36,263 nucleotides of DNA from a virus (lineage: Duplodnaviria > Heunggongvirae > Uroviricota > Caudoviricetes): positions 1 to 36,263 of IMG/VR virus record IMGVR_UViG_3300045988_159823. The stretch is one strand, 5' to 3'. The notes under the pieces are model-generated. The model did no database searches. It was given only the letters and a program-made list of their open reading frames with translations, and was not told where the DNA came from. This document shows, in pieces, positions 4,485 to 36,263 of the stretch (position 1 is the stretch's first letter; each line of letters starts with the position of its first letter). A program made the position numbers and the translations under genes.

Positions 4485-5563
4485 CAGAACGGGTCCTCCT
4501 GTACTCTGGCTTTTTTCTTTTTCCGCGCGCCGGGGGCTTCGGGTTCAGGCAGATAAGCATCAGGTGGGCCGACACGGATTTCCGTCAGGGTGCCGTTCTG
4601 GTCCTGAGTAAACGTGACTTCCGAAACAAGCAGTTCGGTATTGTCGAAACCACAGACCGGATCGAAGACAATCACCCGCTGGTTGGGCTGCCACAGCGTA
4701 CCGTTACCCTGTCGCCAGCCCTGCACCACATAGGTGGTTTCATCCGTCCGCGCCGCCCGTTGTCGGGCTTCAAAGTCCGCACGGGCAATACAGCCTGCCC
4801 CCGTAGCCTGCCCTGTCTGCCTGATATACATCGGACGGTAACGGGCAATAAATGCGTCCTCTGTGCGGGCCCGCAGCGCGGTGGTGGTGGCCTCACCGAA
4901 ATCATCGTCGTTTCCGGCACGCTGCCCCGCCACCTGGTAAACTGAAAACCGCTCCCGGATACTCTTCTCCGTATCACAGGAAAGGATGTTTTCCCCAAGT
5001 ACCAGCGCGGTATGTGCCCGCGTTGAGCCAATACCGCCAATCACCAGCCTGCCGTGCGGGTCGTCATAAGCCAGCGCCTGCTGCTGACCGAGTATTTTGT
5101 TGATTACCTCAATCACCGTTTCACCGTGATCAGGCTGGACATCAGGAATAACACCCGACGGCGCACCGCTGTTCACCACCTCAATGCCGAAAGGCGCAGC
5201 AAGCGCCTGCGCAATCTGTACCAGCGATCGTCCGTTAAACTGTGTCGGTTCGGCTGCACAGTCAATCAGGTCAGCGGTCAGACTGCGTCCGGCAATACCG
5301 GTGCTGACCGAACGGGCATCGTAACGAACGGGCGTCGCCTCCACCCAGCCGGTGATCACCAGCTCATCACCAATCAGCACCTCCACTTTTGAACCGTTTT
5401 TAATGCGCGGCTGAAGCGTGGTGATACCCTCATCTCCCGGCCACTGGCGGGTGATCTCCACACTGAAATCCCGCGCCAGTCGTTCAACACCGGCACCGAT
5501 GCGCACCGATGTCCAGCCATTCCACTCCCGGCCATTTACCCGTAGCGTGACGTTATCGTTCAT
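4484..5563 (-). CDS. tail / baseplate hub protein (Mu gp44 / P2 gpD-like)
   Basis: 359 aa; ATGA start-stop overlap with the upstream gene; synteny. Confidence 0.6.
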   Translation of the reverse strand: MNDNVTLRVNGREWNGWTSVRIGAGVERLARDFSVEITRQWPGDEGITTLQPRIKNGSKVEVLIGDELVITGWVEATPVRYDARSVSTGIAGRSLTADLIDCAAEPTQFNGRSLVQIAQALAAPFGIEVVNSGAPSGVIPDVQPDHGETVIEVINKILGQQQALAYDDPHGRLVIGGIGSTRAHTALVLGENILSCDTEKSIRERFSVYQVAGQRAGNDDDFGEATTTALRARTEDAFIARYRPMYIRQTGQATGAGCIARADFEARQRAARTDETTYVVQGWRQGNGTLWQPNQRVIVFDPVCGFDNTELLVSEVTFTQDQNGTLTEIRVGPPDAYLPEPEAPGARKKKKARVQEDPF

Positions 5564-6888
5564 TGCACTGGCACCTTCAGAGGGATCACCGGCACAAAGC
5601 CGGGATGCGTAATGGCATTACGCCGGATAATGTCCGCGTCACGCGCCGCGTTATCAAACCAGGTCGCCGCCAGCACCAGCGCGGGTAAAACCTCATCCGG
5701 CGTGCGCTGAATGATCCGTGCAGACTGTTCAAGGCGCGTGTTGATATCCGCATTCAGATCTGCTTTCACCCGGCGCAGCGCCAGAAACAGCGCATCACTG
5801 GTTGTACGGGACAACTCCTTATCAATTGCCGTATTCAGTGTGTCGCGAATGTCAGTCAGTTCTTCCCACGTCGGCAGATCAACCGTGTTTTTCACCGCCG
5901 GTGCATTGTTCAGTGCCGGATGCGTAACGGAAGGCCAGCCGGTGCTCTGCGCGGGTGTTGTTGACTGCCCCACTGCGGCATTCTGCATCACCGCAGAAGT
6001 TGTTGGCGCAGGCAATCGGGTAACGGCATACGCCGCTTCGCTGATTGCAGTCGTACGAAGGGTGCTGGCAACCATGTTACGCTGCTGCGTCGCTGTGGCG
6101 GTGGTTTTACTGTCCGTTTTCCAGACGCCGCGCGGTTGCAAATCGCTGCCGAGGCTGACACCAGAAAGCGTTTTGATCATGGTGACCAGGTCGCTGGCGT
6201 TACCATAAAGGCGTTTCCCGGTACGCCACATTTTCTGCATCTGCTCAACGAAATTTTTGCCTGACGATGGTGGCGGCAGAAGTACCGAGATATCCCCCTG
6301 CAACAGCCTGGCAGCATCCGATACGGCAGAATCCACCACTTTCATCGCATCAGAAACATACCCAAGCATTGTGCTGACATTACCAACGACGTCGTTCTGC
6401 ACAAAATCCGCCACGCCATCGATACTGAAACCGCTGAAGCTGTCACTGATGCAGTTATCCAGTGCAGAACAGGATGACATCAGCGTCTGCGCCGTCGCCG
6501 CACCTGATGTGGGGTAAGAGAGTTCTCCTGCTTCGACAAACTTCAGGTCAAAGCGGACAATACGCCCTTCACTTTTCGATGTGCTGACCCGAACTTCCCC
6601 GTCAACACAGACTTTCAGCTCACCGTATGTCGGATGGACAAGCGTGCCGGGACCGGGTTTATTCAGCGCGTCAATCAGGCGATCGCGCTGGTCAAAGCAG
6701 TCATCTCCCACCACATAAGCCGTGATGGACGGGCGAAAAGTGATTTTCCCCAGGTCTTCGGTATAGGGTTTGTCGCGGTTCGGGTATTCATGTGTTTCCA
6801 CACGGCGACCGGTTCCCGCACTTTCTTCTTCAACCTTAAACGGCACACCTCGAAATGACGCATCCTGAAGCCTGTCTTTCCACGTCAT
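5560..6888 (-). CDS. DNA circularization protein (Mu N / gp43-like)
   Basis: N-terminus MTWKDRLQDASFRGVPFKVEEE... is Mu N-like; ATG at 6888 is preceded by GGAG; the track ORF extends to a TTG at 6936 inside the IS200 end region. Confidence 0.65.
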   Translation of the reverse strand: MTWKDRLQDASFRGVPFKVEEESAGTGRRVETHEYPNRDKPYTEDLGKITFRPSITAYVVGDDCFDQRDRLIDALNKPGPGTLVHPTYGELKVCVDGEVRVSTSKSEGRIVRFDLKFVEAGELSYPTSGAATAQTLMSSCSALDNCISDSFSGFSIDGVADFVQNDVVGNVSTMLGYVSDAMKVVDSAVSDAARLLQGDISVLLPPPSSGKNFVEQMQKMWRTGKRLYGNASDLVTMIKTLSGVSLGSDLQPRGVWKTDSKTTATATQQRNMVASTLRTTAISEAAYAVTRLPAPTTSAVMQNAAVGQSTTPAQSTGWPSVTHPALNNAPAVKNTVDLPTWEELTDIRDTLNTAIDKELSRTTSDALFLALRRVKADLNADINTRLEQSARIIQRTPDEVLPALVLAATWFDNAARDADIIRRNAITHPGFVPVIPLKVPVQ

Positions 6889-10287: not shown

Positions 10288-10523
10288 GCCGCTGCATTCA
10301 GGTCTGCCGGAGACATCTGGTCGACAGAGCTTTGCGGCACTTTCGCCAGCCGCACAATATATTTCGATACCACATGCGCCAGAAGTCTGACGGACTCATC
10401 CTGATTCATCTGGTAGGGATACCCCAGCTCGCGGACATCTTTCCCGGTGGGCTCATCAAACTCCAGTACGGAGAGTGTCTCGCCATGAGCGGTAATCGGT
10501 TTCTTTAACTCAAGCTCTTTCAT
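10254..10523 (-). CDS. tail assembly chaperone (lambda G / Mu gp41 analogue)
   Basis: 89 aa ORF immediately upstream of the tape measure gene, with a -1-frame extension ORF overlapping its 3' end. Confidence 0.6.
   Translation of the reverse strand: MKELELKKPITAHGETLSVLEFDEPTGKDVRELGYPYQMNQDESVRLLAHVVSKYIVRLAKVPQSSVDQMSPADLNAAAWLVAGFFLQA
10266..10272 (-). other. candidate slippery heptamer T_TTT_TTC for a -1 programmed ribosomal frameshift
   Basis: Minus-strand GGT TTT TTC CTC in the chaperone zero frame; the -1 frame continues as FFPPGLTAEY... Confidence 0.5.
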
Positions 10524-31923: not shown

Positions 31924-31978
31924 CAGCGAAATTAACTAGTGAAATAGTTTTGTAGCAAAAGAAATGAGGTTATCAAAA

Positions 31979-32224
31979 ATGCTTCAAATGCTGACACTTG
32001 AGGAATGGGCTGCGGAAAAATTTAGGAGTAATCCTCCAAGTGTGTCCACATTACGTCGTTATGCTAAGCAGAATTTATTTTGTCCACCGGCAATGAAACA
32101 AGGTCGACTATGGCGAGTGCGTGAGGATGCAGAGTTAGTTGGGGAGTTAGTTACTCCAGTAATAAAGAAAAGTGATTCTATTATTCTACAAAGGATTTTA
32201 GGTAATGGCAGCCAGACCACGTAA
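31979..32224 (+). CDS. xis: excisionase (lambda Xis-like)
   Basis: LTLEEWAAEKF ... STLRRYAKQNLFCPPAMKQGRLWRVRED parallels lambda Xis; overlaps the int start; exact start ambiguous (31964, 31979 or 31988). Confidence 0.7.
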   Translation: MLQMLTLEEWAAEKFRSNPPSVSTLRRYAKQNLFCPPAMKQGRLWRVREDAELVGELVTPVIKKSDSIILQRILGNGSQTT

Positions 32225-33335
32225 AAATAATGTTTCAGTCCCGAACTTGTATCCGCTTTATAGCAGAAAAGTAAATAAAGTCTATTGGCGATATAAACAT
32301 CCAGTGACCGGGAAGTTTCATTCTTTAGGCACAAACGAAGCTGAAGCCATTGCTATTGCCACTGAGGCAAATTCACGCCTGGCTGAGCAAAGAACCCGGC
32401 AGATTCTGGCTATCAGTGACAGGATCGCAACCAGCAAAGGAAAAGCAATCACAACGTCAACCTGGTTAGATCGCTATCAAGCAATCCAGGATGACAGACT
32501 GGAAAGTGGCGATATAAAGCTCAACACCTATAAACAGAAAGCCAAACCAGTATCCTTGCTCAGGGAACGAGCAGGAATGAAATTAATTTCATCAGTTGAT
32601 GCAAGGGATATAGCACAATTGCTTGACGAGTATATCACTGCCGGGCAACCGAGGATGGCGCAAGTAGTCCGCTCCGTTCTAATTGATGTATTCAAGGAGG
32701 CACAACACTATGGGGAAGTCCCTCCGGGCTATAATCCTGCACTGGCAACCAAACAACCCAGAAGAAAAATTACCCGACAACGGTTAAATCTTGAAGAGTG
32801 GCAAAAAATCTTTGATATTGCAGATGCCAGTCATCGTTATATGGGGAATGCCATGCTGTTAGCACTGGTTACCGGCCAACGGTTAGGTGATATCTCACGT
32901 ATGAAATTTAGCGATATTTGGGATGATCATCTTCACGTCATCCAGGAAAAAACCGGGAGCAAAATCGCCATCCCGCTTTCTCTGCGCCTCAATGCGATTA
33001 ACTGGAGTTTGCGCGATGTAGTAGCCCGTTGCCGTGACTATGCTGTCAGCCCATACCTTGTACATTTTTTTCGTACTACTTCACAGGCTGAACGCGGCGC
33101 ACAGGTTAAAGCCAATACCTTGACTATGAATTTCAGTAAAGCAAGAGATTTAGCAGGAATTGATTGGGGGAAAGGTTCACCTGCCACATTCCATGAACAA
33201 CGGTCTTTATCTGAACGTCTGTACAAAGAACAGGGGATCGATACTAGAAAGCTACTGGGCCATAAAACCCAGCAGCAAACAGATCGCTACCATGATGACC
33301 GAGGGAAAGATTGGAGTAAAATAGCTATAATTTGA
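32205..33335 (+). CDS. int: tyrosine integrase, lambda Int family
   Basis: Collinear with lambda Int including ...TFHEQRSLSERLYKEQ...LLGHKTQQQTDRYHDDRGKDWSKI (catalytic R-H-R-Y region). Confidence 0.9.
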   Translation: MAARPRKNNVSVPNLYPLYSRKVNKVYWRYKHPVTGKFHSLGTNEAEAIAIATEANSRLAEQRTRQILAISDRIATSKGKAITTSTWLDRYQAIQDDRLESGDIKLNTYKQKAKPVSLLRERAGMKLISSVDARDIAQLLDEYITAGQPRMAQVVRSVLIDVFKEAQHYGEVPPGYNPALATKQPRRKITRQRLNLEEWQKIFDIADASHRYMGNAMLLALVTGQRLGDISRMKFSDIWDDHLHVIQEKTGSKIAIPLSLRLNAINWSLRDVVARCRDYAVSPYLVHFFRTTSQAERGAQVKANTLTMNFSKARDLAGIDWGKGSPATFHEQRSLSERLYKEQGIDTRKLLGHKTQQQTDRYHDDRGKDWSKIAII

Positions 33336-34185
33336 CTCTTGTAGGATCCATATCATCAGGAATAGAAATGCTATCACAAAAAAAGATTACTTCTGGCCCT
33401 TGGTACCTAGATTGAGCACTATAGCTGATACCGTACTCAATTTTTCTAAGACCAGTGTACATGTTGTTTATTTCAACAGTATTATCGTAAGATACAATCC
33501 ATGGATGCTTTGAATTAGATTTTATAATATTAGCAATTTCGACATGATCATCATGACTATAATGGTTTTGATACAAGCCCTTTCCTTTAACATAATATGG
33601 AGGGTCAAGATAAAGCAATGTTTTTAATGGGAATCCAGTTACAGTATTTTGCAAGAATGATTTAGCATCTTGGTTATAGATACAAATATCAGATTTACGG
33701 TCTGCTATTACCTTAATACGGTTTACTAAATCAACCTTATTAAATCGAGCATCTATTTTCCATTTTCCATTTTGTTCCTTACCACCAATTACACCACCTA
33801 ACAAAATTCCTGACCGATTTGTTCGATTAAGGAAAAACGTAGCGAATCCAACTTCCAATGAGGAATAATCACATTGATTACTAATGATATTTTTATTCTT
33901 ATACCATTCATCCATATTCACAGGGGTTTTTTCAATTAATTGGCAAAACTGATCAGTTTCTTCTAGAATTGACCGCCAAAAACAAAAAATGGCGTTATTA
34001 AGATCGTTTAAATGTATACGTGATGCTTTCCCAGACAAAAGTAAATTAATGGCTACTCCAGCACCACCAGCATACGGCTCAACATATTCGCAACCATCTA
34101 AACCATTGATCATAATGATCTTTGATAGATAGTTAGTTAATTTACCTTTACCACCAGGATACCGTAATGGGGTGCTGAATCTCAT
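33325..34185 (-). CDS. N6-adenine DNA methyltransferase, Dam (D12) family
   Basis: RYPGGK, VEPYAGGAGVAINLL (SAM-binding) and LYLDPPYY (catalytic DPPY) motifs in Dam-like order; AT-rich; 3' end overlaps the int 3' end by 11 bp. Confidence 0.8.
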   Translation of the reverse strand: MRFSTPLRYPGGKGKLTNYLSKIIMINGLDGCEYVEPYAGGAGVAINLLLSGKASRIHLNDLNNAIFCFWRSILEETDQFCQLIEKTPVNMDEWYKNKNIISNQCDYSSLEVGFATFFLNRTNRSGILLGGVIGGKEQNGKWKIDARFNKVDLVNRIKVIADRKSDICIYNQDAKSFLQNTVTGFPLKTLLYLDPPYYVKGKGLYQNHYSHDDHVEIANIIKSNSKHPWIVSYDNTVEINNMYTGLRKIEYGISYSAQSRYQGPEVIFFCDSISIPDDMDPTRVKL

Positions 34186-34254: not shown

Positions 34255-35964
34255 TCACTTAGTCACAACGCTCTTAACTCTTTCAGGATTAAGGCCAAAT
34301 TCTTCCCCTATAACAAAGCGCAATGCTTCGATAAGAGTATCGTTAAACTTGTCTACCAATATTTTATTATCCTCAGCCCACTTTCTATATGGATTGTATT
34401 TTACACCGCCACATTTTATCAGTTCTTGTAATGTTTTCTCCTGTATAAATTTTTTGAATAACTCTCTTATCCTTGAACCATCAAGTTTATCTTTATTAAC
34501 TTCTTTTATTTTTTCTTTTAATTTAATTTTTTGCTCACTAATATTAAGAGCAGTAATTATGGGGTTGGACTTTTCGAAAAAATAGTCTTTAGTATAATGT
34601 AGTGGGTTGTTCTTCCAGAAATCATCACTGGCATCTAGGTTAAATAGATATTCGAAAATTATTTGATCCGGTGGTAATATTCCCGGTAATTTAACCACAT
34701 TCGCATGCTTGACATTCTCCACGTCAGCATCTAAAACAATTATTGCAGACTTATAAAAACCAGGAACTTTTTTGTTTAAAAGTTGAATATAGTTTTTGCA
34801 TCCAAGAGTTATGTCCTTATTTAAATTAAGTAATCTTCTTATATCTCTGCGTGTTACAACAGAACAAAATAAATCATAATTTTCCTTATCCTCAAAGAAA
34901 ACATTAGTCTTCCGAATAGACTCCTGCTTATTCAACTGTAATGTTTCATTGCAAAGATCTAGCCTAATATCTCCCCATGAATAATCATTCTTTACTTCTA
35001 ACTTACCGTAAGTATTTGTTAGATATATCACCTTATAGTTTTTGCTGTCTCTTTTCGTATATTCATATACTGAATTTATAATCTCTGGTGAATGAGTGGT
35101 AAATACCACCTGTAAATCTAACTTCTTAGTGATAGATGATAATTTCTCAATTAAACGTCTCTGTGCTGCAGGAAACAATCCAGCATCAATTTCATCTATC
35201 AATAGAATCCCACCATGATAATCTGGATATTCAGCCTGAAGTTTTTTAAATGAAAAAATAGCTTGTAGTATTTGTCCTAAATTATCCTCGCCAACAGAAA
35301 CAGATTGATGATCGTATTTTTCACCACTAACAACCATCGAGTCTATAGTACCATTTGTTTTTGTTAGATTATTGGCATTTCGTACACCTAAAATATATGA
35401 ACTTAATTGAACAAAGTCTTGTCTATTTAAATTCATAAATTCATCAATATCAGACACAGTGTATTTTTGACGATCTGGCACGGGTGTAAGGCGCTTCATA
35501 CTCAAGTAAATTAGCGGATGTGTAACCTTTCTGCTATCACTAGCCCCATTAGTAGTAGTATTATTACGAACCGTTGCTCGAGGGTATGAATGTTCACTCC
35601 TTAAATATAGACCGAGTTTTAATTGTTCCAACTCCTTCTGTTCAGCTCCATCATATATAATGACATCAACATCCATAGAACTTGGCGTATCAAACTTTTC
35701 TGAGAGCCGGAAATGCTCTCTAAACTGAGATGAGAAAGGTTTTCCAGCAAGAGTCTTATATTTTCTCAGATCTACCTTTGGCTCTTGAGTATAATCGGTC
35801 TCAAAATTAAACATTTGGGCAGCAATGCCCAACACCGTCGATTTTGACGTACCATTTTTGCCACAAATTGCCGTTATACGTTCACCAAAATGGATCGTAC
35901 AGTCATTCAAGCCTCGAAAGCTCTTTATTTTTATTTCTTTTAGCTTGGTTATTTTTTGGGACAT
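34255..35964 (-). CDS. OLD-family-like ABC ATPase with a probable C-terminal TOPRIM nuclease domain
   Basis: Walker A GKNGTSKST, Walker B ILLIDEIDAG, H-loop TTHSPE; C-terminal FFEDKENYD plus IIVLDADVE look like a TOPRIM Glu and DxD; start at internal Met with AGGA spacing. Confidence 0.7.
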   Translation of the reverse strand: MSQKITKLKEIKIKSFRGLNDCTIHFGERITAICGKNGTSKSTVLGIAAQMFNFETDYTQEPKVDLRKYKTLAGKPFSSQFREHFRLSEKFDTPSSMDVDVIIYDGAEQKELEQLKLGLYLRSEHSYPRATVRNNTTTNGASDSRKVTHPLIYLSMKRLTPVPDRQKYTVSDIDEFMNLNRQDFVQLSSYILGVRNANNLTKTNGTIDSMVVSGEKYDHQSVSVGEDNLGQILQAIFSFKKLQAEYPDYHGGILLIDEIDAGLFPAAQRRLIEKLSSITKKLDLQVVFTTHSPEIINSVYEYTKRDSKNYKVIYLTNTYGKLEVKNDYSWGDIRLDLCNETLQLNKQESIRKTNVFFEDKENYDLFCSVVTRRDIRRLLNLNKDITLGCKNYIQLLNKKVPGFYKSAIIVLDADVENVKHANVVKLPGILPPDQIIFEYLFNLDASDDFWKNNPLHYTKDYFFEKSNPIITALNISEQKIKLKEKIKEVNKDKLDGSRIRELFKKFIQEKTLQELIKCGGVKYNPYRKWAEDNKILVDKFNDTLIEALRFVIGEEFGLNPERVKSVVTK

Positions 35965-36031
35965 ATTTTCCTTCGTCCTCATTTTGATTAAAAAAACAGA
36001 TAAACGGAAAAATGCTACCATGTAGAGAAAG

Positions 36032-36064
36032 TTTTGATAACTTATTTTGATAAAATTTTGATAA
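36032..36064. repeat. three direct repeats of TTTTGATAA at 11-13 bp spacing
   Basis: Read directly: ...gTTTTGATAActtaTTTTGATAAaaTTTTGATAAcc...; lies between the ATPase start and the icd terminator. Confidence 0.4.
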
Positions 36065-36080
36065 CCGTTAGCAGACTAAC

Positions 36081-36110
36081 AAAAAACAACGGGAGCGTTA
36101 CACTCCCGTT
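36081..36110 (-). terminator. rho-independent terminator of icd
   Basis: Minus-sense hairpin AACGGGAG-TGTAACG-CTCCCGTT followed by GTTTTTTG, 24 bp after the icd stop. Confidence 0.55.
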
Positions 36111-36133
36111 AATAGATTTAACAAATCACGATA

Positions 36134-36263
36134 TTACATATTCTTGATGATCGCATCACCAAACTCTGAACATTTCAGCAGTTTAGCGCCTTCCATCAGA
36201 CGCTCGAAGTCATAGGTTACGGTCTTCGCATTGATTGCGCCTTCCATACCTTTAACAATCAGG
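36134..36263 (-). CDS. icd: isocitrate dehydrogenase, 3' end (partial; continues beyond the window)
   Basis: Translation ...[42 protein letters not shown] matches the conserved enterobacterial Icd C-terminus. Confidence 0.85.

Follow-up and report, generated by a model that had tools for sequence, protein, structure and literature searches.

An icd gene end, a terminator and three direct repeats at the right end of the window

The DNA analyzed here, referred to as the window, is a 36,263-nt IMG/VR virus record (IMGVR_UViG_3300045988_159823), and both of its ends are 100% identical to the genome of Escherichia coli L65. Read in the orientation of the window, the gene order in L65 is xis, int, a Dam-like methylase, an AAA ATPase, the repeats, a terminator and a full-length icd. 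The window breaks off within icd, of which it includes 42 codons, one further base and the stop codon, on the minus strand (last codon ATG at 36137–36139, stop TAA at 36134–36136). The hairpin of the icd terminator has a fold energy of −17.7 kcal/mol (z = −3.6) and is kept across 65 related loci, with compensatory changes in nine of 10 pairs. The coordinates of all features are collected in Table 1.

Table 1. Features of the right-hand part of the window (positions are those of the window)
Feature	Position	Strand	Basis and remarks
Excisionase	31979–32224	+	PF07825; probable start ATG 31979, longest ORF from 31964
Tyrosine integrase, e14 type, 376 aa	32205–33335	+	N-terminal arm-DNA-binding domain, residues 1–73; PF09003 and PF00589
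Cargo gene 2, Dam-like N6-adenine DNA methyltransferase	33325–34185	-	PF02086; PADLOC PD-Lambda-5_B, E = 1.9e-121
Cargo gene 1, AAA/ABC-type ATPase between P′3 and int, outside the att site	34255–35964	-	Pfam AAA_15, AAA_21; PADLOC best hits HEC-04, AriA, PtuA-like
P′3, outermost arm-type repeat (predicted)	36032–36040	-	TTATCAAAA; 13 bp from P′2; outer limit of the conserved att region
P′2, arm-type repeat (predicted)	36045–36053	-	TTATCAAAA; 11 bp from P′1
P′1, arm-type repeat (predicted) closest to the core	36056–36064	-	TTATCAAAA in icd orientation; extended form GGTTATCAAAAT; +189 from the icd anchor
Replacement icd terminator, phage-borne	36077–36111	-	Hairpin 36111–36087, then T-run; terminator scan
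Phage-borne replacement icd 3′ end (last 42 codons and stop), part of the P′ arm of attL	36134–36263	-	Comparison with the unoccupied allele

Between the cargo ATPase gene and the terminator of the icd end lie three direct repeats, which read TTTTGATAA on the plus strand. The initial annotation had described them as three copies at 11–13 bp spacing (36032–36064), and this is exact. Four exact copies of TTTTGATAA occur on both strands of the whole window, against 0.37 expected, and none of 100 dinucleotide-preserving shuffles of the window reached four. The fourth copy (31970–31978) lies directly upstream of the probable xis start. It was considered as a conserved regulatory or autoregulatory Int site and rejected, being found only in the window's lineage and in one Shigella genome (L130); it is absent from K-12 e14 and from all other e14-class loci compared, and is therefore probably a chance occurrence.

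Neither int nor xis is disrupted in the window. The integrase shares 95% identity with IntE of K-12 and 59% with phage 21 Int; PF09003 covers residues 1–73 (E = 7.1e-37), the catalytic domain PF00589 is present, and residues 15–375 match lambda Int structures (1z1b, E = 1e-56). Xis is 36% identical to phage 21 Xis, in an alignment that begins at residue 6 of the long ORF. The int gene of L65 is interrupted by IS1A (L001, 1129–3036), which splits off the arm-binding domain; the window is otherwise identical, with int intact.

The ATPase and the PD-Lambda-5_B-like methylase are probably an anti-phage defence pair, and this combination was found in only seven complete E. coli genomes. The distance of 113 bp at which icd and its terminator had been placed beyond the ATPase start is correct to the start of the longest ORF (36021), which is without a Shine–Dalgarno sequence. 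It does not hold from the RefSeq start of the identical L65 gene (35964), which is preceded by AAGGA and leaves a gap of 170 bp to the icd stop.

The prophage is inserted in icd and brings its own gene end

In L65 the other prophage end is ~40 kb distant, past the tail-fibre genes with which the window begins, and there a DUF262 gene (L002, 596–2485), an icd pseudogene fragment of 168 bp and iraM are found. Together with the full-length icd past the window's right end and the near-identity of Int to IntE, this bears out the e14-type insertion that had been proposed from the window alone. A comparison of the two junctions, as recommended at the time, revealed an attL/attR duplication of 216 bp (92% identity), which starts at ATGTTACGCCATATGGG and is identical over its first 127 bp. 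The left edge of the duplication maps to 36298, which places the 11-bp core block ATGTTACGCCA at the would-be positions 36288–36298. The core is thus inside icd, 25–35 bp past the window's right end, and not at some other locus, for instance a tRNA gene.

Because attL and attR are identical over 127 bp, the crossover point is unreadable from the L65 lysogen alone, and it was therefore taken from K-12. There, attL/attR identity is limited to 11 bp (ATGCTGCGCCA) followed by divergence, which pins the crossover to that block. The 127-bp identity of the resident allele and the phage copy after the core suggests a past exchange of icd ends between phage and host. The displaced icd fragment of L65 (L002, 3325–3492) carries a TGT-to-TAT change (Cys to Tyr) relative to an unoccupied allele (L192), which fits a loss of selection on the fragment.

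The empty attB was rebuilt by joining the chromosomal flanks of attL and attR, and a genome was counted as a match if at least 80% of the query was found in one place. By this measure, 2,967 of the 5,426 complete E. coli genomes have the rebuilt site without interruption, with an identity of up to 99.8%. In strain M8 the empty site is 99.8% identical to the rebuilt attB, and icd is directly followed by iraM. Relative to the M8 allele, the icd end in the window differs by two synonymous changes, and its 3′ UTR and terminator have diverged; the icd protein of L65 and M8 has the same accession (WP_000444487.1). The phage thus supplies a replacement icd terminus, as the initial annotation had it, without changing the protein. 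This replacement copy is what the window shows as icd end and terminator, which therefore belong to the prophage. Where the annotation had the prophage abutting the 3′ end of icd, it was right about insertion in icd, but the icd end seen in the window is itself the P′ copy of the phage. The right-hand prophage boundary is now fixed inside icd, beyond the window, and the icd end in the window is phage DNA. Sequence comparison shows that attP carries a copy of ~216 bp of the icd 3′ end plus terminator.

The repeats mark the outer limits of a conserved att region

The P′ arm of the window is present in 500 of the 5,426 E. coli genomes, and in ~480 genomes the homology begins at window position 36031, one base outside P′3. 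Directly past P′3, K-12 and L65/window diverge completely. Among 31 distinct sequences of the e14 class, the repeat cores are near-invariant, and the 2- and 4-nt spacers and the outer flank vary. A conserved att module, ending at 36031/36032, is thereby separated from a variable cargo slot. It appears that cargo was inserted just outside P′3, leaving the att site undisturbed, and defence-type cargo seems to have a slot at either end of e14-type prophages.

A further copy of the repeat is present in the other arm. The P-arm fragment of the far junction reads GGTTATCAAAAC, and the P-arm copy of TTATCAAAA lies ~126 bp to the other side of the core. Measured from a fixed icd anchor in the window and L65, the P-arm copy is at −171 and the P′ copies are at +189, +200 and +213, a span of 393 bp from the P-arm copy to the end of P′3. 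The corresponding offsets of TTATCAAAA in K-12 e14 are −172 in the P arm and, again, +189, +200 and +213; in phage 21 and five 21-like phages the repeat is TTCCCCAAAA, at −173 and at +187, +199 and +212, and for phage 21 the positions were also taken straight from its sequence. Contiguous e14-type attP sites were found in three IMG/VR contigs, in which a P-arm copy and three P′ copies occur together and the P-arm copy is 360–361 bp from P′1. In its junctions, attB, Int and Xis homology, and one plus three repeats at the limits of an attP of ~400 bp, the prophage agrees with the icd-inserting lambdoid att sites (e14/phage 21 type).

Repeat motif and integrase N-terminus vary together across icd-associated loci

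Using the integrase protein alone as query, with one genome per species, we recovered 80 Int relatives (53%–95% identical) in many Enterobacterales, of which 74 adjoin the icd 3′ end on the opposite strand. Nearly all of the icd-adjacent loci have two to four direct repeats, usually three, and the repeats start 66–70, 77–81 and 90–94 nt after the icd stop, at the same position for all motif classes. In 50 of the 74 loci int follows directly after the repeats; in the other 24 there is 0.7–5.6 kb of varied cargo in between. Seventy-three loci fall under four main motifs and one variant of the e14 class, each with its own version of Int residues ~15–25 (Table 2). The T(A/T)GCAAAA loci come from two separate genera or lineages (Klebsiella sp. 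and Morganella) and have changes at Int residues 18–19.

Table 2. Repeat motifs at icd-adjacent loci and the accompanying Int segment
Repeat class	Loci	Int segment
TTATCAAAA	34	PNLYPL(Y/F)SRKxNK
TCCCCAAAA (phage 21 type, TTCCCCAAAA)	22	PNLYxKLDKRxGK
CTGCAAAA	9	PGLSCYTDARTKK
CAGTAAAA	5	NLFCFxDPRTKR
T(A/T)GCAAAA, variant of the e14 class	3	PNLYP(M/F)FSRK

Several loci depart from the usual pattern. There are two repeat copies in four loci and four copies in one (among L143, L152, L175, L187 and L166), and in Erwinia tracheiphila (L115, ~10300–10460) the array is cut inside the first repeat by foreign DNA. A contig labelled Vagococcus sp. WN89Y (L153) has an enterobacterial-type icd end, a phage 21-class integrase and TTCCCCAAAA repeats; its Gram-positive label is probably a matter of contamination or mislabelling. 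For the CTGCAAAA class, IMG/VR contains six loci that include the end of icd. Of these, four represent attL, a fifth has too little upstream sequence for a call, and the sixth is the only candidate for a contiguous site. The last of these (L261, ~5500–6040 of an 85-kb contig) has an e14-type P-arm copy (TTATCAAAA) ~362 bp upstream and three P′ repeats of the CTGCAAAA class, a hybrid junction such as would arise from two different icd prophages in tandem. IMG/VR yielded no CAGTAAAA locus with icd.

These data raise the possibility, which we regard as evenly poised between right and wrong, that the icd integrases of Enterobacterales form a natural set with at least four arm-specificity classes (TTATCAAAA, TTCCCCAAAA, TCTGCAAAA and TCAGTAAAA) plus the T(A/T)GCAAAA variant, sharing one target gene and one layout of one plus three repeats, with specificity residing in ~10 residues of the Int N-domain (15–25). 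If so, arm recognition could be recoded independently of core recognition, which would account for competition between different phages for one site, or for their tandem stacking there (as L261 may illustrate), and would offer orthogonal integrases for a single attB. To our knowledge, the only one of these class differences present in the literature is that between phage 21 and e14, and the family-wide covariation of repeat motif with Int N-domain is the sole element of this work beyond what we know to have been described.

Which protein recognizes the repeats

The initial annotation had offered three roles for the repeats, namely Int arm-type sites, IHF sites of the att region, and operators of the cargo promoter. 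The last of these, in which they would act as operators or promoter elements of the ATPase–methylase operon, draws on their position ahead of the operon, at 67 bp from the probable start of the ATPase and on the side where transcription would begin. Conservation regardless of cargo contradicts it, and we consider it extremely unlikely: the same repeats, at the same distance from icd, recur in K-12 e14, phage 689R6 and ~500 E. coli genomes in which the downstream sequence is unrelated, so that they accompany many different cargos, and they occur in the 50 of 74 loci that have none. Furthermore, homology stops exactly at the repeat edge, and no sigma-70-like promoter was found on either strand of 35850–36263. 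A role as IHF sites bending the P′ arm is suggested by P′1 and the start of P′2, which read TATCAAAATTTTA and fit the IHF consensus WATCAANNNNTTR. Such a match is created by any two e14-type repeats 11 bp apart, however, and only one of the three copies fits. The match is not conserved across the family, as the phage 21-, CTGCAAAA- and CAGTAAAA-class sites at the same positions are unlike the consensus, and the specificity of IHF, a host protein, should not shift with the integrase lineage. The better conserved IHF-like match is a different one, located in the P arm (at −105) in K-12 e14 as well as in phage 21, and we judge it very improbable that the repeats themselves are IHF sites.

The covariation of motif with Int, and the presence of the repeats with or without cargo, support Int arm sites and argue against both cargo operators and IHF sites. 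Since Xis is inherited with Int, covariation alone is also compatible with recognition by Xis or another linked factor. The repeats could then be bound by Xis, or by a different phage-encoded accessory protein, in place of Int; xis adjoins int and diverges between classes (e14-type versus phage 21), so it would co-vary too. The layout points the other way, as the int-proximal arm has three tandem copies at its outer limit and the other arm has one at its own, which corresponds to the arrangement of Int sites in lambda, where Xis sites lie inside the P arm. In addition, Int has a strong arm-binding domain (PF09003), and it is Int residues ~15–25 that track the motif, including in the Klebsiella sp. 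and Morganella T(A/T)GCAAAA lineages. We therefore regard binding by Xis or another accessory protein as unlikely. Repeats that mark the outer limit of att, recur in the opposite arm and differ between integrase lineages at a constant target carry the signature of lambda-type arm sites, and it is on these grounds that they are assigned as P′1–P′3. Judged from such sequence comparisons, the three repeats are very probably Int arm-binding sites, the first of the roles originally offered.

Proposed architecture of the att site

We conclude with high confidence that 36032–36263 forms the attL P′ arm of an e14-family prophage in icd, with the repeats as Int arm-type sites. Sequence comparison shows that the chromosomal 5′ part of icd is joined to the phage copy at the short core (ATGTTACGCCA here, ATGCTGCGCCA in K-12), so that icd stays intact, and that the original 3′ end is displaced to the far junction beside iraM. 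P′1–P′3 would be bound by the N-terminal arm-binding domain of Int, the TTATCAAAA copy in the P arm would serve as P-arm site, and Int would assemble the recombination complex by bridging these outer arm sites and the core-type sites, as lambda Int does. Since the att site is in a coding region, the P′ sites would have to sit beyond the gene end and terminator, ~234–267 bp from the core. Int would thus have a stretch of ~235 bp to bridge between the core and P′1, and the resulting attP would be unusually long, at ~395 bp. The locus offers a textbook case of a protein-coding gene used as an attachment site without inactivation.

Comparison with e14, phage 21 and lambda

The arrangement is already known: it is classical that e14 and phage 21 insert into icd and supply a gene end of their own (PMC6379469), the phage 21 repeats are annotated in GenBank, and the att region of the window is essentially that of e14. 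The full-text literature searched for phage 21/e14 arm sites contained only general mentions of e14 in icd.

Like the prophage of L65 and the window, e14 of K-12 presents the series icd, prophage, icd fragment (icdC) and iraM, and has TTATCAAAA repeats, with three copies downstream of the phage-borne terminator and a fourth at attR, in the P arm; the P′ arms are 95.8% identical over 95 bp. The two differ in what surrounds the att site. Between P′3 and int, e14 carries C0293, ymfD, ymfE and lit where the window has the ATPase and the Dam-like methylase, and the far end holds mcrA in e14 and, just inside attR, the DUF262 gene in L65. The prophage of the window, at ~39 kb, has full morphogenesis genes, whereas e14 is a 15-kb remnant.

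Phage 21 (M61865, OL657228) shares with the window the icd target, the phage-borne icd end and terminator, and one P-arm and three P′-arm repeats at positions that agree within 1–2 bp. In GenBank OL657228.1 the three P′ copies carry the annotation 'integration site attP consists of 3 subsites P1P2P3; consensus YYTTCCCCAAAA'. The repeats of phage 21 are thus YYTTCCCCAAAA and not TTATCAAAA, its Int and Xis are only 59% and 36% identical to those of the window, and its int follows directly after the repeats, with no cargo, whereas cargo lies between them in the window. The span from the P-arm copy to the end of P′3 is 395 bp, compared with 393 bp in the window. Wang et al. are reported to have delimited in vitro, in 1997, a minimal phage 21 attP of 366–418 bp with outer limits at 'repeated dodecamers', arm sites reportedly proposed by S. 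J. Schneider. The measured spans of 393–395 bp fit that range.

Lambda likewise has a heterobivalent tyrosine integrase with an N-terminal arm-binding domain (PF09003), and its P1, P2 and P′1–P′3 sites resemble those of the window in that three tandem direct repeats lie in the int-proximal arm and a site lies in the other arm. Its motif is a different one, and it has two P-arm sites where the window has one clear copy. The P′ sites of lambda are within ~90 bp of the core; those of the window are farther away because the gene end and terminator sit between. Finally, the target of lambda is intergenic, whereas that of the window is a protein-coding gene.
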